From positions 398,908,001 through 398,972,000 of the forward strand of contig OZ024740.1 in NCBI GenBank assembly GCA_964016885.1: DNA of 64,000 nt, in the 5' to 3' direction. Shown piece after piece: positions 4,594 through 46,864 of this stretch; the first letter of the stretch is position 1; each line of letters begins with the position of its first letter. The notes beneath the pieces were generated by a model. That model was not told the origin of the DNA. It did no database searches and worked only from the letters and a program-made list of their open reading frames with translations. Origin of the DNA: Eledone cirrhosa. Lineage: Eukaryota. The translations under genes and the position numbers were made by a program.

Positions 4594-4645
4594 ATATATA
4601 TACAATTTAGATGTTTAGCATTTGATTTGTTCATTGCTTCCTTAA

Positions 4646-4815
4646 CCCTTTAGCATTTAAACTGGGCGTATCCGGCCAGAATTCTCTCATCTCTTTCTTT
4701 TCAAACCAGCTCAAAATAAATAACCTCAAAATCTCATAGATTCAATATTATGTGATATAAAGCCTTTACGATGAAAATATAATAGTAAATATAGAGTAAT
4801 GTAAATGCTCAAGAG
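4646..4815. mobile_element. piggyBac-like MITE, copy 1
   Basis: TTAA|CCCTTTAGCATTT ... AAATGCTCAAGAG|TTAA. Confidence 0.75.
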
Positions 4816-5143
4816 TTAAACCTAAACTCATTAAAGTATAACATTCTTCATATATATCCTTATAATTGCCACCAATTATTGCCTTATCTTTCTCAATCAC
4901 AGACACTCACATATTTTTACTTGGTATTTCCTCTATATTTTTTCATCCATCTCTCTCCTTTCTCTGTTTCTGTAATGGCTCATTTTCCCCACTAGTCTTT
5001 CACCATCTCCATTTCTCTTACCAAGGGACATGTCATTCTGCTGTAAAAATCTTTGTTCCACTTACACTGGCTCTGTTATATATGCACAATTATATACCTA
5101 TCATTGTTATGGCAAAAGGTCAAGCTAAATCAGACATGTTTAA

Positions 5144-5351
5144 CCCTTTAGCATTTACATTACTCTATATTTACTATTGTATTTTCATGGTTAAATACTT
5201 ATCTCACATAATATTGAATCTATGAGATTTTGGTATTATTTATTTTGAGAACAATATCTTAACATAAGTATGAGCAACCAGTTACAGCCAGTTTAAACAG
5301 AAAGCAGTGAAAGAATTCTGGCCGGATACAGCCGGTTTAAATGCTAAAGGG
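5144..5351. mobile_element. piggyBac-like MITE, copy 2 (opposite orientation)
   Basis: TTAA|CCCTTTAGCATTT ... AAATGCTAAAGGG|TTAA. The internal sequence is the reverse complement of copy 1. Confidence 0.8.
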
Positions 5352-5825
5352 TTAAAATGATGAAACAGCTAAGCAAACAAAATAGAATGGAAAGCTCTTC
5401 CAAATGATGATAATGATGAAGTCAAATATGAGGATTGTTGTAGTTGTTGATGATAGTGATTATTTCTGTTTATAATAATAAAAAGGAGGTGATGGGGGTA
5501 TTGGACAAAGATAGTTGTTTCAGTTGTTGTTGCAGTGTCAAAGGAATCAATATTCAAGTTATGCTTGCATCAAAAGGCCCAATCTTTATTAAACTGGAAG
5601 TCCACGCAACAAGACTGGTTCTCCTGAACCTCCCATGACAACACCTACTTCTAGTGCCCCTCTACAAGTGCACTGCATACCTGCACACATTAGCGAATTG
5701 TTGAAAGAGACATGCATATAACTATAATGAACAGAAGTGCAGTGAGGACCAAACCCTAATGAACTCCTTGTATCATAAAAAAACATTAAAAAAAAAAATA
5801 TCATTATTTACGTCACTACCGTTTT

Positions 5826-5982: not shown

Positions 5983-6212
5983 TTTAGGTGTATGGTTGCA
6001 AGAAAAATTGCGTCTGTAGCCGGTATGCCGGGTGAGCACTCAATGCTTGCGCAGAGCAGAGTATAATACTATAAGAATAAAGGAACAAAGAATCAGTGTT
6101 GCATCATAACATATTACACATGTTTCACTATCAATCAGCTCGAGAAATGATCTATTATTGACCGAACCTGACTCTGTATACAGAGTCAGGTTCCTTTATT
6201 CGTATAGTATAT
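5983..6212 (-). mobile_element. Small fold-back element (probable PLE remnant)
   Basis: Inverted pair 6066-6086/6190-6210, perfect palindrome GAACCTGACTCTGTATACAGAGTCAGGTTC at 6163-6192, minus-strand GAAACATGT and tail motif CATTGAGTGCT. Flanked by (TA)n. Confidence 0.5.
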
Positions 6213-14760: not shown

Positions 14761-14922
14761 ATAAGGGTATTTATATATTTTTTTAAAATTATAGTTTCAA
14801 GGGAAATTATATGCATTAAATCTAATGCTACATCAGAGCTCGAATTTTCGAATATTGGAAATCTCAATAACGATAACTCCGTCTTTAAAAAATTAGGTAA
14901 TTTTTTCACACACACAGACATA

Positions 14923-14965
<43 letters not shown>

Positions 14966-15003
14966 TAAAGAAGAAATTAAAAGATGGCTAAAAGAGTTCC
15001 GTA

Positions 15004-15073
15004 TATTTTATTATGTGCATTTCGAATACAAAATCATCCTGGGACAAAAATTGTGTTCTCATCAGATAAAATA
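15004..15073 (-). ncRNA. Type I hammerhead ribozyme (inverted copy)
   Basis: Reverse complement of 15203-15272 with an intact core. Stem III is TGCACA. Confidence 0.75.
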
Positions 15074-15202
15074 AGGTAACATGATATGAGGCATAATAGC
15101 ACTTCTTTACAGGAAAGTACTAAGTCTACATATATAGATATGATATGTAGACTTAGCACTTTCCTGTAAACAAGTGCTATTATGCCTCATATCATGTTAC
15201 CT

Positions 15203-15272
15203 TATTTTATCTGATGAGAACACAATTATTGTCTCAGGATGATTTTGTATTCGAAATGCGCATAATAAAATA
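15203..15272 (+). ncRNA. Type I hammerhead ribozyme
   Basis: TATTTTAT-CTGATGA-GAACACAA...TTGTATTC-GAAA-TGCGCA-TA-ATAAAATA: perfect 8-bp stem I, canonical core, palindromic stem III. Confidence 0.85.
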
Positions 15273-15397
15273 TACGGAACTCTTTTAACCATCTTTTAAT
15301 TTCTTCTTTATTATATATGCTCCAGTTCTACCAACTGTTGAGTGCTACTTATCTGATATATACATAGTTTTATTGTTCTACACTATTACCCTGCTTC

Positions 15398-15436
<39 letters not shown>

Positions 15437-15628
15437 CACAACATATATATATCCACATACAAAGGCAGACACATTTAAAATCAATGAAAAGTAATAAATT
15501 CAAGGGAGACAATTCAGTTTAATTTACATTTTTTTCATCTCCCTTTTGTTTGTGGTAACTGTTAAGCAAACGTGTTTAGAAATGAGGTATACACACACAC
15601 ACACACACACACACATACACCGATATAC

Positions 15629-15691
<63 letters not shown>

Positions 15692-15696
<5 letters not shown>

Positions 15697-16040
15697 GATA
15701 TTAATAAATGGAAACTATATTTATAAAACCATATTTATTTCATTATACATATTTCAGGGATACCAAATTAAATTATGGTATGCCTTCATCAGACAAAATA
15801 CAATATATAACAGTTTTACAAATAAGCTTTGACGTACCCTTTTAAAATGCGACCATTATTTTTGGAGGCCATCTGGATACTATGGTATCCTGAAATATGT
15901 ATAATGAAATAAATATGGTTTTATAAATATAGTTTCCATTTATTAATATCGTATATCTACTCCAAATACTTGTCCAGTGCTTTATATCAGTTATAAAAAT
16001 ATTTACTTGTTGTATCCCAACAATTTAAATAAAACTTTTG
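15692..16040 (+). mobile_element. Penelope-like fold-back element
   Basis: Arms 15692-15765 and 15883-15955, tail 15956-16040, (TA)n flanks. Same family as 39250-39465. Confidence 0.75.
15737..15799 (-). ncRNA. Type I hammerhead ribozyme
   Basis: Minus strand: ATTTTGT-CTGATGA-AGGCATACCA...TGGTATCCCT-GAAA-TATGTA-TA-ATGAAAT. Confidence 0.8.
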
Positions 16041-16215
16041 CATATATATATATATATATATATTGTTATGCTTTGGGAGGGTCATGTTGCCAATAAGAAA
16101 CACACGCCACAGTTGCTTTCACTCCAATTTATTAGAAATTAAATTTATAAATTTAAGAATTTATAAATTTCCGGTTGGTTGGTTGGTTCCACAACCGGAC
16201 GGTTGCTCATATATT

Positions 16216-16258
16216 GTCAAAGTTCTTTCGTCACACATTCTGTGACCTCTTCAGTGAC
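16216..16258 (-). ncRNA. Minimal type I hammerhead motif (inverted copy)
   Basis: Exact reverse complement of 16960-17002. Confidence 0.75.
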
Positions 16259-16959
16259 TGAGGATTCTTTTCTTTGTTTTTGTGCCTCTCCTTTGTTCTG
16301 TCCTACGCCATCTTGTTTTTGTGTGTGTTGTGTGCTTAGTTTGCGCATGTGTTACATCCGGGTGTCTGTGTGTGTTTATATTTGTTTATTTATTTGTTTA
16401 TTTACATGTTACTGGTTGGTTGTTTGTTCTATGTGCGTGTGTGTTTTCATTTTGTCCTTAATTGTAAGTTGTGATGTTGCTATTCCATTCATATTTTCTA
16501 TTTAATTTTGGTTGGAGTTCATTTATGTTTATTGCCTCTGTGATTTGTCTAAACATTGCGTCTTTTCTGTGTGTAGATTCTATTTTTATTTCTATTTTTA
16601 TTTCTATGTTCTGTAACTAGAAATAAAAATAAAGATAGAATCTACACACAGAAAAGACGCAATGTTTAGACAAATCACAGAGGCAATAAACATAAATGAA
16701 CTCCAACCAAAATTAAATAGAAAACATGAATGGAATAGCAACATCACAACTTACAATTAAGGACAAAATGAAAATACACACACACATAGAACAAACAACC
16801 AACCAGTAACATGTAAATAAACAAATACATAAACAAATATAAACACACACAGACACCTGGATGTAACACATGCTCAAACTAAGCACACAACACACACAAA
16901 AACAAGATGGCGTAGGACAGAACAAAGGAGAGGCACAAAAACAAAGAAAAGAATCCTCA

Positions 16960-17002
16960 GTCACTGAAGAGGTCACAGAATGTGTGACGAAAGAACTTTG
17001 AC
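16960..17002 (+). ncRNA. Minimal type I hammerhead motif
   Basis: GTCA-CTGAAGA-G-GTCACA-gaatg-TGTGAC-GAAA-GAAC-TT-TGAC. One extra nucleotide follows A9. Confidence 0.75.
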
Positions 17003-17239
17003 AATATATGAACAACCGTCCGGTTGTGGAACCAACCAACCAACCAACCGGAAATTTATAAATTCTTAAATTTATAAATTTATTTATAATAAATTGGAGT
17101 GAAAGCAACTGGTGCGTGTGTTTCTTATTGGCAACATGACCCTCCCAAAGTATAACAATATCGGTTTGAACACACGTTTTCAGATAAAGAATCTTGTTAA
17201 ACAAATTCAGAAACGAAATATATATATATATATATAAAG

Positions 17240-20200
17240 AGAGATCCTATTGGATGTATTCGATATAAAGCACTCTGACCTGGGTTTAGCTGGTCGTATG
17301 AGATCGCATGTGAAGTGTATGGTCGAAAACTGCTTCTTTCACACTCTATCCTCGCATTGACAATGGTTTAACTGACTGTAAGAGATCTTATGTGATGTAT
17401 ACAACGTATACGACCCTTTGCTTTCAACCTTTAGTCAGGCATTGACCATTATTTAGCTGACCATATGGGATCTCATGGGAAGTATAGGTCTAAAACCTCT
17501 TCTTTCACCCTCTAACCTGGTATTGACAAAGGTTTAGCTGGCTGTAGGAGATCCTATGAGAAGCATATGGTCTAAACTGATTCTATCGCCATCTAACCTT
17601 CTATTGATCAGGGATTAACTGATCCTATGGGAAGTATAAACTTCAAAACGTCTTCTTTTACCCTCTAATCTGTCATTGAGAAGGGTTGAGCTGACGGTAG
17701 GAGATCCTATGAAACGAATATGTCCTAAAGCCATTACTTTCGGACTCTGACATGGGTTTAGCTGACTATATGAAACCCTATAGGAAGTATACAGCCTAAA
17801 ACTGCTTCTTTCACCTTCTATCCTGGCATTGACAAGGGTTTAGCTGATGGAAGGAGATCCTACAAGAAGTATACGCCCTAAAGCCATTACTTTCACTCTC
17901 TAACCAGGTATTTACCATGGTTTGGATGGCCATATGAGATCCTATGCACTTAAATCTGATTCTTTTACCCTCTAACCTGGCATTGACAGGAGTTTAGCTG
18001 GCCGTAGGAGATCCTACAGTATTTATACACCTAAAACTGCTTCTTTCACCCTCTATCCAGTCATGGACAGGATTTAGTTGGTTGTATTTGATTCTACATG
18101 GCGTATACGTCATTATACTTTTTTTTTTGCCATCTAACCTTGCATTAACAAGGGTTTAGCTGGCCATAGGATATCCTATAGGATGTATATGGCCTAAACC
18201 TTCTTAAAATCACTGTCTAACCTCATATATATCAGAGATTAGTTGATCCTATGGGAAGTATACACCTTAAAACTCCTTCTTTTATCTTTTAATCTATCAT
18301 TGACAAGGGTTCAGCTGGCCGTAGGAGATCCTATTGGAAGTATAGGCCTTAAAAATGCTTCTATTAACCTCTAACCTGGCATTGACAACAATTTATCTGA
18401 CCGTAAAAGATCGATCTGGTGTATACGACCTAAAACCATTACATCTGCACTCCGACCTGGGTTTAGCTGGCCGTAGGTGACCCTATGTGAATTATACAGC
18501 CTAAAACTTCTTCTTTCACCATTGTAACAGCGTAGTGATGAGGTTTTAGTGGGCCATATTAGATGTTATGGGAATTATACACCTACAACTGCTTCTTTCA
18601 TCCTCTAACAAGGCATTTACCAGGGTTGAGCCGGCCATAAATCTTCTTCTTTCACCCTCTAGCCTGGCATTGAAAGGTATTTAGCTGGCCGTAGGTGATC
18701 CTACAGGACGTATACGACCTAGAGCCATTACTTTTGCTCTCTGACCTGGGTTTAACTGGCTGTAGGAGACCCTCTGTGAAGTATGCAGCCTAGAACTTCT
18801 TTCACCGTACTAACTGCGCAGTGACCAGGGTTTAGATGACCGTAGATCTTATGTGAAGTGTACACCTACAAATGCTTCTTTCGCCCTCTAACAATGCATT
18901 TACCAAGGTTTAGCTGGCCATATGAGATATTATGGGAAGGATACAGACTGAAATGGCTTCTTACACACATGAACCTTGCATTTACAAGGGTTTTGAAGTC
19001 CTATGGGAAGTATACACTTTAAAACTGTTTCTTCTAACCTCTAACCTGGCATTGATAACGATTTATCTGGCCGTAGGAGATCCGATGTGACATATGCCCT
19101 AAAGCCCTTACTTTCTAACTCTCACCATGGCTTAACTGACTGTAGAATATCCTGTGTGAAGTATACTGCCTAAAACAGATTCTTTCATCTACTACCAGGC
19201 ATTGACCAGGGTTTGGAGGGCCGTAGCAGATCCTATGGGACATATATGCCTTAAAGCCCTTACTTTCGCCCTCTAGCCTTGCATTGACAAAGGTTTAGCT
19301 GTCTATAAGAGATCCTATGTCATCAATATGATCTAAAGCCTTTATTTTCGCACTCTAACATGAGTATAGCTGGCCAAATGAGATCCTATGGGAAGTATAC
19401 GGTTAAAACTGCTTCTTTCACTTCTAACCTGGCGTTAACAAGGGTTTAACTGGCCATAGGTGATCCTACAGGACATAAACACCTAAAAGATCCTATAGGA
19501 AACTGCTTCTTTTAAAACTGCTTCTTTTACCCTCTAACCAGGCATTTACCAGGGTTTAACTAGCCAAATGCGATCCTAAAAGATATATATGTCCTCAAAC
19601 TTCTTTCACCCTCTAACCTGGCATTGACCAGTATTTATCTGGCCATATGAGATCTCATGGGAAGTATAGGCCTAAAATTGCGTCTTTCACACACTAAACT
19701 GACATTGACAAAGGTTTAGCAGGTCCAAGGAGATCCTATCAGAAGTATATGGTCTAAAACTGCCTTTATTGTTCTCTAGTATCATTTTGACCAAGGATTA
19801 AGTGATCTTATGGAAAGTATACACCTTAAAACGCCTTCTTTTGCCATCTAATCTGTCATTGACAAAGGTTGAGCTGACGTTAGGAGATTGTATGAAATGA
19901 ATATGTCCTAAAGCCATTACTTTCACACTCAGACATGGGTTTAGCTGGCCATATGAGATCCTATAGGAATTATACGGCCTAAAACTGCTTCTTTCACCTT
20001 CTATCCTGGCACTGACATGGGTTTAGCAGTTGTTAGGAGATCCTATGGGATGTATACTCCCTAAAGCCATTACTTTCGCCCTCTAGCCATACATTAGTCA
20101 GTGTGTCACTTGACATATGAGATCCTATGCGATGTATACTCTTAAATCTGCTTCTTTCACCTTCTGACTTGCCATTGATAGGGGTTTAGCTGGTCGTAGG

Positions 20201-20815
20201 AGATACTACAGGATGTATACACCTACAACTGCTTCTTTCACCCTCTATCCATCATGAACCAGGGTTTAGTTGGCTGTATGTGATCCTAAAGGAAGTATAC
20301 ACCCTCAAACTGCTTCTTTCGCTCTCTAACCTTACATTGACAAGTTAGGAGATCCTATGGGACGTATACAACCTAAAGCCATTACTTTTACACTCTGACA
20401 TGGGTTTAACTGGCTGTAGGAGATCCTATGTGAAATATACAGCTAAAACTGCTTCTTCCACCGTCCTAACCAAGCAGTGACCAGAGTTTAGCTGGCTATA
20501 TATTAGATGCTATGGGAGGTGTACGCCTACACCTGCTTCTTTCATCCTCTAACAAGGCATTTACCAGGGTTGAGCTGGCCATATGAGATCTTATGGAAAG
20601 TATATGCCCTAAAGTCATTACTTTCACCCTCTAGTCTTGCATTGACCAGGGTTTAGTTGGCCATAGTAGATCCTATGTAATGTATATGCTTAAATCTGCT
20701 TCCTTTGCCTCCTAACTGGCATTGACCAGGGTTTAGCTGGCTGTAAAAGATCTGACAGGTAGTTTACGCTTTAAAACTGCTTCTTTTACCCTCTAACCTG
20801 GCATTGCCAATGGTT
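17240..20815. repeat. ~81-bp satellite array (roughly 45 diverged monomers) with higher-order organisation
   Basis: Consensus approximately GAGATCCTATGGGAAGTATACACCTAAAACTGCTTCTTTCACCCTCTAACCTGGCATTGACCAGGGTTTAGCTGGCCGTAG, with ~70-bp variants. Confidence 0.95.
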
Positions 20816-33952: not shown

Positions 33953-34152
33953 TGCAGTGGATTGGCACTATCGGTAGAGCGTAGAACAATAACTTCGAGG
34001 CATAGAGTTATGGCCCTTTACACCGTGAGTTCAAATCCACCCGAGGTTAGCTTTGCCTTTTATCATTAAAGGGTCGATAAAATAAAGTACCAGTAATGCA
34101 CTGAGGTCGATTTCATCGACTTTCCCTTTCCCAAATGTGCCTAAATCAGAAA
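33953..34152 (+). mobile_element. Meta-like SINE
   Basis: tRNA-like head, GAGTTCAAATCC and GGTCGATAAAATAAAGTACCAG. Confidence 0.85.
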
Positions 34153-34210
34153 TCATTATTTTATAAATTTTCATCGAAAAATAGAGAGAGAGAGAAAGAA
34201 GGAGAGAGAG

Positions 34211-34281
<71 letters not shown>

Positions 34282-34482
34282 CAATTTCTAATATAAAAAC
34301 AAGACTCTTTCATTGGAATTCAGACAACATCAATTTGGTAAATACGTATGTATGTCTGTGTGTGTTTGTGCTCGATATTTTATCCTTAATAGGATATCTC
34401 AAAACGCGAACGAAACCCCAGGTTAGGGACATAATCATGGTAAGAGTGTACGCATTTCTTCTAACTTTAATTTTATACCTAA

Positions 34483-35256
34483 CTAGCAGTAAAGCCCGGC
34501 GTTGCTCGGGGTCGCTCAGTAGCTGTGTTAAAGTTACAATGTTAAGTTTCTTTTTTGGCTTAAAAACTGTAGTGTCTACTGTGCAGACTTGCATGTGGTG
34601 TTTTTGATTAATATTCCCTCAACCAACAATATGCCTTATGAAGTTAAGAAAACATAACGATAACCCGAATGTTATAACAAAAGAGGATGCTGGGGATAGA
34701 AACTGCACTGGTTATTTATTAACAAAGATCGAAAATGTAAACACTGCAACGCAGAGAAAAACATTAGCGTAACCAAATTATCAGTTATGTCTGTCTGCAC
34801 GCCTATATCACCTCTCTGCACGACTGTCTGTCTGCACGCCTGAAATATTTGCTTGTTTTACGTAGTCTTTAAATAGACTTGTTTTCAAGTAAAAATATTG
34901 TTTTAAAATGCTTTTAAATGGAAATGAAGCAAAACGGAAGCTTAGTGTTCGAATGTTCGTGTATTGTGTTAATGTCATTTTAAACGCTGAGAAAGCCAGC
35001 GTAATTTTTTACGTAAGACGCTCAATGTAAACAGAACAAAGGGAAATAACTGATCACTTACGCTCAAAAATCGATACATTATATTCGATTTCGTCAGATA
35101 GGGTGGGTCAATTTGAAATTTTTTTTTTCCGATGTCTTCGCTAGGGCTCAATGTACAAGTATAGCAATTTCGGTGTAATTCCGTGAGAGATTCTAAGAGG
35201 AGATGTGTGCCAAAAATCGATAGACAGACAGACAACCACAGTTTTATATATATAGA
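34483..35256 (-). mobile_element. Non-autonomous Helitron
   Basis: Minus strand: A|TCTATATATATAAAA ... hairpin CCCGAGCAACGCCGGG ... CTAG|T. The termini match the Helitron at 52287-53475. Confidence 0.85.
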
Positions 35257-35490
35257 TTGTGTATGGTTGACGGTATATTTAGTCGATTTCTACATGCTGT
35301 TGAAATGTTGGGTAAATATTCTATTGCGGTCGGCCGCGAAGAGGCTGCTGTCGTTTATTTATCAAATATTTCTTCATAGGAGCCTTATTCTTATAGCCTG
35401 GTCTAATTGATTTTTTATGTGCTTAATTATGCTAACTGGGAGAGGAAATGGTGTATATATTTTATCAAATGATTCTATGGACATAGTTTA

Positions 35491-35569
<79 letters not shown>

Positions 35570-35570
<1 letters not shown>

Positions 35571-35754
35571 ATAATAATAAATGTGTAGATTAAAATCCGA
35601 AGAGGGCTCGATAAGGATTATATATATGTATATATATATATATATATAAAAATATAAGCAAAGAATCGTTGCTTTCCCCCTTAACGGTTAAGGGTGAAAG
35701 TAGCGATTCTTTGCTTAAACTTTAATCTGTTATCTTAATAAATATTTGCTCTAC

Positions 35755-35760
<6 letters not shown>
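35570..35760. mobile_element. Penelope-like fold-back remnant
   Basis: Hairpin AAGCAAAGAATCGTTGCTTTCCCCCTTAAC/GTTAAGGGTGAAAGTAGCGATTCTTTGCTT within (TA)n. Homologous to 1091-1270. Confidence 0.6.
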
Positions 35761-35808
<48 letters not shown>

Positions 35809-35921
35809 CACCAATATCATTAGCTCGATAAACTGTTTTTAAAAAAACACAGTTGTGAGAAGGATATTACGTTTCTTGAAATTACATACAGAAAAGATTC
35901 GCTTGCTTGGATATATGCATA

Positions 35922-36108
35922 AATTGTTTCTACTTTTGGCACAAGGCCACCAATTATTCCAGTACATTACTGGTACTTTATTTTATCGACCCCGTAAGGA
36001 TGAAAGGCAAAGTTAACCTTGGCAGGATTGGAACTCAGACCATAAAGGGCCATAACTCTATGCTACAAAGCATGGCGTCCGAACCTCTACCGATACTGCC
36101 AATCCACT
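35922..36108 (-). mobile_element. Meta-like SINE
   Basis: Near full-length match to the other copies. Confidence 0.85.
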
Positions 36109-36940: not shown

Positions 36941-38921
36941 TTCTTATACAGTGCTTACACCAATGTTATAAAAGACCAGGTCATGTGCTATTTTGTTTGC
37001 TATTGTGAATTGTGCCACATCGGCTTGTGATGGGATACAGGGTATTTCTTTCTAGTCTCTGATGTTTCTTGTTTTAGTTTTATCTGTTTGAGCCATGCTA
37101 ATTTCTTGCTAAAAACTTTGTTGCATTTCTGAGTGATGTATTTTTCTTCTTGGGGAATAATGTTCATGTATTCTATTTTTTCTCGTGGTGTGGTGATCTT
37201 ATTTCTTGTCATAGGATGCGTTTCCATTTTTCTTGCTGGCTTAGTTCTGTGTAGATTTTCTTTTTTATGTTCAGGATTAATGTTCGTTTAAGACTACCAG
37301 CTTGTCTTTTCGTTAGTTGGATTCTTCTTACATTGATGTTAAATGGTGTATAAATTCTGGATGAGACACATTGTTTTATGAAGTGTAGTTGTCGAGTTGT
37401 TATTGTTTTCTTCAGACAACAGAAGATGGTGGTTTTCAGTGTCTTCCTAGCTTGACTAAAGCTTACGGTACTTCGTTTTCGTATTTGTTTTGCAAGATTT
37501 TTCATCTGAAAACGTGCGTTGAAACAAATATTGTTATACTTTGGGAGGGTCATGCTGCCAATAAAAACACACGCACCTGTTGTTCTCACTTCAATTTATT
37601 ATTATTATAAACTTTCAGTTGGTTAGTTTAATATCCGGATGGTTGTTTATTTGTTGATTGTCAAAGCTCTTTCGTCACACATTCGCATTATGCCAAACCC
37701 ATAGCCTCCAAGTACCTGATCCACTGAAACTCAGCCATTTCTGATAACATAAAAATAAACATACTAATTGTGGACTTAATAAGAGTGATGAAGAATGTGC
37801 CCCGCATGTGCAATCTTAAAGAATTAGAGAGACACATATAACACTTCGTCCACCGCATACAGTTCTCTGGCTACAATCAGAGAAGCAGGATGAGGGTGTC
37901 TAAAGGAGCCAGGGCCAAATGTATGAAAATTGTAGAAAATGATACGAATGGGACTTGTTCCAATTATAGGAGCAAATTTTGGAATAGGATAGATACATCT
38001 AAGAAAAAGACAAATAAGATCAATAAATTGCAGAGTGGGGTCGTCAATGCTACCCCCAGAGGTGAACTTGCATACAGATTTAGAAGGGTTCTAGACGAAC
38101 TAAAATTAAATATTAAGATAGTAAAAAAACCAGGTATTCCTGTAAAAGCCCTAATTAATAGAACATATCCTTTTGAGACCCACCCCCCTACTAATAGGAA
38201 ATGTATAGTCTGCAAATTAAGCCCACATATTAACTGCAAAACTAGGAATGTAGAGTATAGCATAAGATGTACGGAGGGATAGTGTAGGAATAAGAACACA
38301 CCTCACATAGGTGAGACAGCCCGTAGCATAGGAGAAAGGATAAATGAACACTGGCGAGAACTCCAAGATAGGAAGAACTCATCAGTACTCCACCAACATG
38401 CCAAAATGGAACATGGTATCTCACTAGAAAATATCCAGTTAAAAATTATATCTACACATAAAACAGACACAATGCTCCGACAGATTACAGAAGCGACAAA
38501 CATAAACTCCAACCAAAACTAAACATAAGTGGAATAGCAACAACCTAACAACTAGTAACTAAGGACAAGATAAAGATATACAGAGAAACACAAGAACTAA
38601 ACTAATACAATAAACTAGGCACACACAGATAGAACAAACAACCAACCAGTGACAAAGAAATAAACGTATAAATAAATAAATAAAAACACACACAAACACA
38701 CACACATAGAAACCCAGGTATAACGCATCAGCAGCCGAAGTACACAGCTCACAAAAACAAAATGGTGTAAGACACAACAAAGAAGAGACACACAATAACA
38801 AAGGTAGTCAAAAATTAAACAACCAACCGATTGAGAGTTTATAATAATAATAAATTGAAGTGAAAATCAAAAGGTGCGTGTCTTTTTATTGGCAGCATGA
38901 CCCTCCCAAAGTATAACAATA
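36941..38921. mobile_element. Penelope-like element (Naiad-like) with inversion: ORF 5' part on minus, RT C-terminus + GIY-YIG + 3' UTR on plus
   Basis: Plus strand 37687-38520: HYAKPIASKYLIH..SA..KINILIVDLIRVMKN..QFSGY; CIVC..CKTRNVEYSIRC..C..HIGETARSIGERINEH..HQH..H..MLRQITEA. Minus strand 37685-36941 is the pLTR plus the ORF N-terminus. Confidence 0.9.
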
Positions 38922-39016: not shown

Positions 39017-39019
<3 letters not shown>

Positions 39020-39225
39020 ACGAAGGAGGTGTGGTAAGGAACCAGATGAACCATAACGCACCAGAGTACTCAATACTTAGGGTAGTAGAGTGGGTAATAG
39101 GAAAATGTTTAACCCCGACGGCAGAGCTCAACCCGTTTCGACGGCTATTTCTGGACGGCTATTTCAGTCCAGAAATAGCCGTCGAAACGGCTTGAGCTCT
39201 GCCCTCGGGGTTAAACATTTTCCTA
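39017..39225. mobile_element. Penelope-like fold-back with two hammerhead 3' halves
   Basis: Arms ~39097-39156 and 39167-39226. Tail 39017-39096 is the reverse complement of 5890-5968. (TA)n flanks. Confidence 0.7.
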
Positions 39226-39249
39226 TATATATATATATATATATATGCA

Positions 39250-39462
39250 AAGTTTTATTTAAATTGTTGGGTTACAACGAGTAAATATTTATAACTGATA
39301 TAACTTTTAAATGGAAGATGAAGTTGAAAGGTATGTCAAATCTATCTATTTATAAGACTGTTTATATTGTATTTTGTCTGAGGAAGGCATATCATATTTT
39401 TAATGTGATATCCCTGAAATATATATAATGAAATAAATATAGTTTCCATTTATTTAATATCG

Positions 39463-39465
<3 letters not shown>
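39250..39465. mobile_element. Penelope-like remnant (inverted tail plus pLTR arm)
   Basis: 39252-39303 is the reverse complement of tail 15982-16035. 39320-39465 is homologous to the minus strand of 15692-15845. Confidence 0.75.
39371..39434 (+). ncRNA. Type I hammerhead ribozyme
   Basis: ATTTTGT-CTGAGGA-AGGCATATCA...TGATATCCCT-GAAA-TATATA-TA-ATGAAAT. Confidence 0.82.
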
Positions 39466-41488: not shown

Positions 41489-41983
41489 GCGACGTGGTTA
41501 GTCAGTCTGGTCACTACTTCTGATCAGATCCGAGAATAGCCCTTAGAAGGACTGTTATCGCATACGGTCTGATCAGATCTGAAGATAGTCCTTAAAAGGA
41601 CTGTTGTCGCATATAGCCCTTAAAAGAACTGTTGAGGATGGACATACGAAAGCACAAGTTGAAAGGACGAAGCAAGGCGAGATGTAAATTCGATCAGCTA
41701 TTTATCTTCACATGAAGCGACGATACGAGGTACAAGGCGTGTGTGAGTGACAAAGCGTGGCAGAGTAAAGGAACAACGATGCGCTAGCTGACTCTGCCAA
41801 AAGTCGACTAGCGAAGTGTTGGGAACCACTCTATTTATACAGAAACAATCGTTTGATGTTTAGCCGATGTGTAGGCGTTTATTCTGGTAGGTTTTAAGAG
41901 TTCTTTTGTTTCACGTTGAGGTAGCTAGCTAACAGGTAGATGGCGCTGTATATTTCACAGATGTTATTTCCGGTGGCTGTACA
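41485..41983 (-). repeat. 3' LTR
   Basis: TGTAGCGAC...GGCTGTACA, a direct repeat of 46366-46864. TATAAATA on minus near 41832-41839. Confidence 0.97.
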
Positions 41984-46365: not shown

Positions 46366-46864
46366 TGTAGCGACGTGGTTAGTCAGTCTGGTCACTACTT
46401 CTGATCAGATCCGAGAATAGCCCTTAGAAGGACTGTTATCGCATACGGTCTGATCAGATCTGAAGATAGTCCTTAAAAGGACTGTTGTCGCATATAGCCT
46501 TTAAAAGAACTGTTGAGGATGGACATACGAAAGCACAAGTTGAAAGGACGAAGCAAGGCGAGATGTAAATTCGATCAGCTATTTATCTTCACATGAAGCG
46601 ACGATACGAGGTACAAGGCGTGTGTGAGTGACAAAGCGTGGCAGAGGCGAGGGACAACGATACGCGAGTTGACTCTGCCAAATGTCGACTGCTGAAGTGT
46701 TTGGAACCACTCTATTTATACAGAAATAATCGTTTGATGTTTAGCCGCTGTGTAGGCGTTTATTCTGGTAGGTTTTAAGGATTCTTTTGTTTCACGCTGA
46801 GGTAGCTAGCTAACAGGTAGATGGCGCTGTATATTTCACAGATGTTATTTCCGGTGGCTGTACA
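46366..46864 (-). repeat. 5' LTR
   Basis: Direct repeat of 41485-41983, adjacent to the PBS. Confidence 0.97.

Follow-up and report, generated by a model that had tools for sequence, protein, structure and literature searches.

The Eledone cirrhosa assembly (3.0 Gb) holds, set among (TA)n and (CA)n tracts, three consecutive fold-back elements (E1, E2, and E3) that carry hammerhead ribozyme motifs, an arrangement which raises the question of whether such hairpins move as units in their own right or are deposited by longer elements. The locus lies in a window of 64 kb that spans positions 398,908,001-398,972,000 of its contig, the whole stretch of DNA analyzed here. A sequence-only reading had described three fold-backs in (TA)n, each composed of an inverted and a direct arm, and these arms were recovered by their coordinates at identities of 93-99%: 14960-15133 with 15143-15316 in E1 (97%), 15688-15758 with 15889-15959 in E2 (99%), and 16060-16603 with 16615-17161 in E3 (93-97%). 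The common architecture ascribed to them holds for the three fold-backs as such, but E2 is asymmetric and has a whole hammerhead in its long arm only. The features of the locus, in window coordinates, are:

14920-14964, no strand: (TA)n target tract left of E1, a repeat tract
14960-15133, minus: E1 inverted arm, tail-less; begins at the 5′ wall A, 258 nt from the family 3′ end
15012-15065, minus: E1 hammerhead of the inverted arm, core to predicted cleavage site; descriptor match
15134-15142, no strand: E1 junction filler; the junction recurs once in the genome, 51 kb downstream
15143-15319, plus: E1 direct arm, a Hydra-clade PLE 3′ end; begins at the same wall A as the inverted arm
15211-15264, plus: E1 hammerhead of the direct arm, with 8-bp helix I and palindromic loop 3
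15320-15400, plus: E1 tail, 81 nt; same sequence at the start of the parent body
15401-15695, no strand: E1-E2 interval of (TA)n, unique spacer, (CA)n, and (TA)n
15688-15879, minus: E2 inverted arm, tail-less, a second Hydra-clade PLE 3′ end; begins at +3 of the TCACT wall
15744-15792, minus: E2 hammerhead, the sole complete one of E2; descriptor match
15883-15959, plus: E2 short direct arm and 9-nt filler; hammerhead 3′ half only
15960-16042, plus: E2 tail
16060-16598, minus: E3 inverted arm, tail-less
16220-16254, minus: E3 hammerhead of the inverted arm, with 4-bp helix I and non-palindromic loop 3
16619-17161, plus: E3 direct arm, the 3′ end of a C-terminal-endonuclease PLE with linker zinc finger
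16620-16760, plus: final 46 codons and stop of the parental GIY-YIG endonuclease, within E3
16964-16998, plus: E3 hammerhead of the direct arm
17162-17218, plus: E3 tail, then (TA)n

Diverged 81-bp tandem satellite arrays flank the stack (17283-17599, 18245-18412, and 19932-20332).

Hammerhead motifs were sought with a descriptor ordered as helix I, CUGANGA, helix II, GAAA, loop 3, and UH, which matched all five complete type I hammerheads claimed for E1-E3, at 15065(-), 15211(+), 15792(-), 16254(-), and 16964(+). The window contains six such motifs, as compared to a mean of 0.04 and a maximum of one in 100 dinucleotide shuffles, and 40 evenly spaced 10-kb stretches contained 17, as compared to none in 10 shuffles. 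The extrapolated genome-wide number is ∼127,000 (74,000-204,000), a lower bound because the descriptor misses variant cores, in agreement with the claim that this genome is densely seeded with hammerheads. An Rfam scan recognized no hammerhead and returned microRNA matches below threshold only. In 400 kb of random stretches (L246, L253, L244, and L279), at least six more families of hammerheads with palindromic loop 3 were observed. Conservation of the hammerhead core over its flanks, set beforehand as a test, was borne out: none of the 33 core columns carries a lineage variant, as compared to 101 of the 483 remaining columns (p = 0.001). Rare post-insertion changes do reach the core, at 1.5-3.0% as compared to 2.8-3.2% outside it. 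Absence of lineage variants from the core together with presence of rare changes there indicates that selection acts in active parents while the inserted copies (stubs) decay, the hammerheads of the stubs likely being passengers.

In predicted folds of whole-hairpin transcripts, the probability of an unpaired core is 0.001 in E1 and E3 and 0.5 in E2; predicted core accessibility in single arms is 0.34-0.77. Full-hairpin RNA is predicted to hide four of the five ribozyme cores. The antisense arm of a head-to-head pair precedes the ribozyme whichever strand is transcribed, each hairpin has at most one hammerhead per strand, and the repeats are inverted, unlike those of tandem retrozymes, so that the earlier term “ribozyme-hairpin system” is unsupported for these elements. 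Hammerhead cleavage was considered as the origin of the 5′ ends and rejected, with 0 of 44 E3 arms ending near the cleavage site; E1 is barely informative on this point because its anchored arms had to pass that site. The E3 result fits the available text of PMC11167929, in which uncleaved RNA is the substrate.

Autonomous parents with RT and GIY-YIG were located for E1, E2, and E3, which upholds the earlier identification of the hairpins as pLTR ends of Penelope-like elements (PLEs). Upstream, E1 runs on into L142, an element of ∼3.5 kb in which DKT, an RT of Hydra type, and the CxxC and CxH motifs were read; the E1 tail sequence reappears at the start of its body, and the RWK position reads RW-I in this single old copy. 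E2 continues into an element (L096) that has a complete CxCx5C linker, GIY-YIG, and CxxC and CxH, has no CCHH, and is cut before the DKT position; the CxCx5C linker is decayed in L141 and L142. These two parents, whose hairpins had been called unrelated, are homologous, with 67% identity across 673 nt of RT and an alignment score of 125 over the last 340 nt, as compared to a shuffled maximum of 95. Their RTs agree, when compared by eye, with the supplementary Hydra proteins of PMC8557442, and the Hydra-clade features given in section 11 of that source include those read here. Motifs and this by-eye RT comparison point to E1 and E2 as related Hydra-clade PLE families. Exact-word counts across the genome were 246 for an E1 22-mer, 5,450 for E2 proper, 27,093 for E2 and its sister subfamilies, and 22,763 for E3. 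Integrase frames resembling an LTR retrotransposon were observed beside one E1 insertion (L143:1-1647).

The E3 parent, read in L101 and L141, has an RT, a CX4CxxC linker, and a CCHH (C..C/H/H) C-terminal endonuclease; the linker zinc finger is seen in L105 and L101, and the motif at the DKG position reads DKS. Its protein has 163 homologues, the nearest named one being an Octopus vulgaris RT protein (69%), and its type was absent from the PMC8557442 supplement alignments in which it was sought. Endonuclease and linker motifs suggest a Neptune- or Nematis-type PLE. E3 arms retain the final 46 endonuclease codons, and the description of the hairpins as ORF-less is incorrect for E3. A longer, diverged E3 relative (72-88%) with an inverted arm lies at 37483-38921 and had gone unmentioned in the sequence-only reading. 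For the parents, Pfam gave RVT_1 below cut-off only (E 3e-5) and neither a Hydra nor a GIY-YIG match, the GIY-YIG motif having been read by eye. The PLE hallmarks found are an ORF for RT and GIY-YIG, a partial tandem pLTR, an inverted copy, an optional tail, and a minimal type I hammerhead with conserved core in the pLTR.

Central junctions occur genome-wide twice for E1 and once each for E2 and E3, which argues that the hairpin is not the replicating unit. Whole-element similarity matches have the look of a fixed unit, which was rejected as evidence: they are the best 40 of 1,700-2,600 candidates, chosen by resemblance, and each has a different junction. Position-ordered pattern samples were used in place of best-scoring matches, and in these inverted arm pairs lie 35 nt to 5.5 kb apart; arm lengths range from ∼50 nt to several kb. 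By the junction test proposed along with it, the notion of a mobilized hairpin unit fails, since junctions are unique, arm lengths vary, and autonomous parents exist. One E1 hairpin copy lies 51 kb downstream (L110:1986-2384); it is tail-less and has the same junction, in another (TA)n and with unrelated flanks, and differs at 10 positions in 348 nt while having one private arm asymmetry in common. The shared asymmetry and junction indicate a single copying event from the resident E1 hairpin, through either duplication of DNA or read-through retrocopying. The 3′ ends of arms fall at two fixed places, with and without tail, and are followed by (TA)n in 74 of 92 (E1), 29 of 30 (E2), and 33 of 35 (E3) cases, as compared to 8.9% of random places, confirming the proposed (TA)n targeting. 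Stacks recur independently, E3 adjoining E2 in L036 and L042 and E1 in L350, as would be expected of families with (TA)n as a common target.

A clade of short copies was also sought and rejected, with 16 label changes compared to 14 shuffled on a tree in which 2 of 44 branches are well supported; short and long E1 copies are intermixed on this weak tree, and no self-propagating short family emerges from it. The idea of a non-autonomous class survives in part at the level of RNA, where the fixed 5′ end described below points to a short template, and loses it at the level of descent, the short copies forming no lineage. E1-E3 vary in length and have RT-bearing parents, unlike MITEs, and exhibit neither the direct tandem same-strand hammerheads nor the fixed-unit spread of retrozymes. 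They are, with high confidence, one-off insertions of PLE 3′ ends. In kind they are ordinary, being stubs of two Hydra and one Neptune/Nematis-type families, and a new class is unsupported.

The same design had been reported at five other places in the window. At 39017-39465 lies a composite, in which a sister of E2 carries a whole motif, at 39378, and is accompanied by a half motif; the others have half, variant, or long-helix-II motifs: 5826 and 35570 retain the 3′ half of variant hammerheads only, and 1091 has a variant core with an altered cleavage-side strand. The count of six families was judged fair, 5826 and 39017-39226 forming one and 1091 and 35570 another. The 5826-5962/39017-39226 family is abundant (88 arms in sampled loci), and its long copies (L041, L022, and L157) are predicted to fold into a three-way hammerhead junction (MFE -23.2) with a 5-bp helix III and a GUC site, the core being a variant one in which position 3 is U or C and position 8 is A. 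The 1091-1270/35570-35760 family has a conserved hammerhead-like motif with short helices and A at core position 4 (CAGAAGA), and some of its 5′ ends fall at TTAGTT. The fold-back at 224-630 has an E1-like tail and one hammerhead-like motif at 413 with a helix II region of 61 nt; no second copy was found in the sampled loci. Also seen in the window were a small TA-embedded fold-back built around a palindrome of 30 nt and not related to the 5826 family (6040-6212); inverted-repeat pairs with arms 300-1900 nt apart, possibly MITEs or other PLE ends (1841-2864, 4642-5355, and 33993-36070); two identical 49-bp dimer repeats (41519-41613 and 46400-46494) that lie 4.9 kb from each other and may be terminal repeats of an element within positions 41.5-46.5 kb; and a weak tRNA-like match of 27.5 bits, below cut-off, near a 70-nt repeat frequent in the window and probably a SINE (764-821).

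In three families, namely E1, E2, and the 5826 family, the 5′ ends of many arms cluster on one base, the A of a motif resembling an initiator, referred to here as the wall. For E1, 18 of 60 wall-reaching arms in the first sample end 253-262 nt from the 3′ end, as compared to a background of 0.041 per 10 nt, this interval having been picked post hoc and including the window's own arms, with duplicate loci removed. The same end was found in 4 of 8 arms from 15 fresh loci, and a sister subfamily of 77% identity has, by eye, 6 of 10 arms that stop there. In fresh E2 loci (74 arms), the ends of 18 of 53 arms fall between +1 and +10 and four more start at +1 by eye; none of the other 31 ends at -14 to -72, the 59 nt between the wall and a ∼250-nt pyrimidine tract that lies just upstream in both E1 and E2. 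TCACT or a one-letter variant is kept at the equivalent place in long copies of diverged E2 subfamilies. In the 5826/39017 family, 28 of the 39 arms that include the A of TTAGTC are without the parent's upstream sequence (24 exact by eye), and short copies have half a ribozyme because the wall lies within loop II. The 1091 family has four such starts as compared to ∼17 arms passing the site, counted by eye. Wall sites in all four families are pyrimidine-A. Within the window, both E1 arms begin on the A and the E2 long arm begins at +3. The E1 motif, a CATATG palindrome, is a poor initiator. TCACT has been named as initiator-like in the pLTR (PMC3846280), and the Penelope promoter has been mapped inside the pLTR (PMC2377424), in the portions of these sources available.

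No AG precedes the wall A, and a splice acceptor was rejected on these grounds. A cap is expected to leave an extra G before the start A in copied RNA ends. This signal is weak: such a G precedes the wall A in 10 of 27 E1 ends as counted raw (∼8 of 25 minus ambiguous rows, marginal alone) and in 4 of 7 E2 ends; with pooling by hand and eye, 15 of 40 ends have it, as compared to ∼20% (p = 0.008). Upstream pLTRs of near-full-length E1 copies behave differently. Drawn from 30 loci with the E1 body start, with four tandem duplicates counted once, 0 of 13 wall-reaching pLTRs begin at the wall (p ∼0.01), and the simple prediction that they would do so failed. Their failure to begin there speaks against a stop that the sequence itself would impose, as well as against the A as the start of full-length RNA, such that a second template must be assumed that is longer, tandem, or circular, as proposed by Cervera and de la Pena (PMC4209133, available text). 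E3 has no sharp wall but a broad rise, with 9 of 34 arms ending within 30 nt, its 5′ ends being rough since one E3 reference was effectively used; an apparent fixed E3 5′ end in similarity matches was the query end and was discarded. The rise lies 310-340 nt from the 3′ end, around a motif that resembles a YY1 site. E1 has a second pile-up at the 5′ edge of the hammerhead, to which 10 of 86 arms contribute, often with both arms of a hairpin ending alike; it falls 189-199 nt from the 3′ end. We lean toward reading the wall, from its sequence context and end counts, as a transcription start.

Among 29 abutting E1 hairpins, 24 have one tail, four have none, and one has two (24/29, p = 0.0005 against 0.5), and all eight abutting E3 hairpins have one tail. 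By hand tally of the 24 one-tail E1 hairpins, the tailed arm is shorter by >15 nt in 11, longer in three, and approximately equal in 10. In those 11, each arm has sequence absent from the other, which snap-back copying cannot explain. Partner arms have minor letters in common more often than other copies do, in 27 of 131 compared to 204 of 9066 instances (2.3%) for E1 and in 49 of 95 compared to 316 of 2035 (15.5%) for E3, consistent with a single template, gene conversion being an alternative source. Arm lengths are coupled, with 13 of 30 pairs within 15 nt as compared to 6.1 when permuted (p = 0.0009). Joining of the arms is heterogeneous, being blunt or by filler or microhomology. Junction microhomology of ≥3 nt was found in 5 of 48 E1 (null 5%), 12 of 35 E2 (16%), and 4 of 11 E3 junctions (9%), and is raised in E2 and E3 only; palindromic microhomology as a general joining rule was rejected, not being enriched in E1. 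The junction-filler null alone yields 13-29% false filler. To account for the arm asymmetry, two cDNAs copied from RNA are needed for at least some hairpins, and derivation of both cDNAs from one RNA is fairly probable. The replicated fixed start, which was unexpected, together with this one-tail, one-template pattern is the part of these observations worth pursuing.

Several rival explanations bear on these patterns. It is unlikely, though by no means negligible, that only ordinary 5′ truncation of full-length RNA is at work and no short RNA exists, the wall being (TA)n microhomology or an RT stop, imposed either by a structure or just short of the pyrimidine tract. In its favor, the E1 CATATG matches TA/TG flanks, both E1 and E2 have the tract adjoining the wall on its upstream side, full-length copies begin elsewhere than at the wall, short copies are mixed with long ones, and E1 has its second pile-up at the hammerhead edge. 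A built-in stop should, however, work in every context, yet none of the 13 upstream pLTRs stops there, and neither does any of eight shorter arms of long insertions (hand tally); moreover, the E2 wall is not TA-like and is separated from its tract by 59 nt devoid of arm ends, and the 5826-family wall is located inside hammerhead loop II. In snap-back, one cDNA or an antisense template (PMC3846280, available text) would fold and copy itself into the second arm, as symmetric hairpins centered on natural palindromes (L210, L215, and L226), inverted filler at many junctions, and coupled arm lengths would suggest. This may explain the symmetric subset; it is improbable overall given the 11 of 24 one-tail E1 hairpins, and the E2 of the window, in which each arm has sequence missing from the other.

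A non-autonomous, retrozyme-like class, the unit of which copies itself via self-cleaved or circular RNA, draws on the E1 junction that recurs 51 kb away with unrelated flanks, shared asymmetry, and 10 differences in 348 nt, on the 40 top-scoring matches that look like whole units, and on the conserved hammerhead core. Those matches were picked for similarity and each has a different junction, the junctions of E1-E3 are present 2, 1, and 1 times, the core-unpaired probability is 0.001 in four of five whole transcripts (0.5 in E2), 0 of 44 E3 arm ends fall at the cleavage site, and the repeats are inverted, not tandem; such a class is very improbable and largely already refuted. Near-perfect palindromes amid microsatellites, at a locus bridged by no read or contig, could also reflect an assembly artifact from fold-back long reads or MITE-type DNA transposons. 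The chance of this is minimal, as the arms differ by 1-7%, each family has fixed positions for its tailed and tail-less ends, RT and GIY-YIG are encoded by the parents, and loose ends in short reads pass from tail-less positions into (TA)n.

The sequence evidence favors a reading in which the stubs, as one-off insertions of PLE 3′ ends, likely arose from a single RNA that was reverse-transcribed twice, this RNA often being short and likely begun at an internal promoter. The PLE enzyme would nick both (TA)n strands; priming would occur on one strand where the tail starts and on the other 60-84 nt upstream, at the tail-less start, and both cDNAs would extend toward the RNA 5′ end before being joined head to head by filler or microhomology. 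If the wall is a transcription start, both E1 arms and the E2 long arm would be run-off copies of short pLTR RNA; E3 would be an ordinary truncation. A tentative extension posits two templates, in which short capped RNA begun at an initiator within the pLTR gives rise to hairpins and a longer, possibly circular, hammerhead-processed RNA to full-length copies. A dimeric enzyme would copy the short RNA twice, once per target strand and start site, seeding tens of thousands of pLTR-only hairpins, and the long RNA would have no 5′ end, such that upstream pLTRs run through the wall. Were this so, the stubs would map PLE transcription starts genomically and would be a footprint of the unexplained inverted-pLTR step. 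The origin of inverted and tandem pLTRs is called open in the available text of PMC8557442 and PMC2377424, and the abundant short insertions of this genome offer countable ends for the inverted-pLTR question, with the one-tail rule, coupled arm lengths, and fixed 5′ wall as sharp testable predictions. Such stubs are liable to be misread as MITEs, microRNA precursors, or retrozymes, and, if transcribed, would be expected to yield long double-stranded RNA instead of active ribozymes.

The design of inverted pLTR plus tail, the hammerheads, and (TA)n targeting are previously published, as are opposite-strand hammerhead pairs 100-700 bp apart (PMC4209133, available text). A search of the open literature, mostly by title, returned nothing on an initiator 5′ wall or on two primings per RNA in PLEs. 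Like the stubs, the non-LTR retrozymes described in the available portions of PMC7229834 and bioRxiv 10.64898/2026.07.22.740005 are short, non-coding, and linked to PLE pLTRs, with type I hammerheads; those elements form direct tandem repeats with at least two same-strand ribozymes and circular RNA, in contrast to the stubs, which are inverted, carry a single ribozyme on each strand, and have junctions that are unique. MRC1 and other non-autonomous Chlamys elements (PMC8557442, available sections) are likewise short PLE derivatives with the parent's 3′ end, but self-propagate as families, whereas the short copies here are unseparated from long ones. Hydra-clade PLEs as covered in the same sections (Craig et al. 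2021, including Hydra-1_Obim) are like the E1 and E2 parents in DKT, CxCx5C, and CxxC and CxH, and have in common with them the C-terminal GIY-YIG, hammerhead, and (TA)n target. The parents here are longer (E1 ∼3.5 kb, with a 3′ UTR of 1.1-1.2 kb including the pyrimidine tract) than Hydra elements described there, the E1 and E2 tails measure 81-84 nt as compared to 30-40, copy numbers reach thousands to tens of thousands, unlike those described, and a 5′ wall, none being described for Hydra in those sections, is present.

The canonical PLE insertion, as presented in the available parts of PMC3846280 and PMC8557442 (Fig. 2 of the latter), consists, as here, of an inverted 5′-truncated copy and a direct copy head to head, with a tail on one end and palindromes or microhomology at the junction. 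The body is absent here, unlike in the canonical inverted-pLTR insertion, for which the published account is self-priming. The in vitro activity of PAc Poseidon (Frangieh et al. 2024, PMC11167929, available text) agrees with two reverse transcriptions on one RNA, in that the enzyme cuts and extends both strands; hammerhead cleavage is unnecessary, and a dimer is predicted. Its two RT start sites bracket the tail and its target is AT-rich, like the sites seen here. PAc Poseidon belongs to another clade and exhibits no strand difference in start site, whereas hairpins here mostly pair one tailed with one tail-less arm (24 of 29 in E1).
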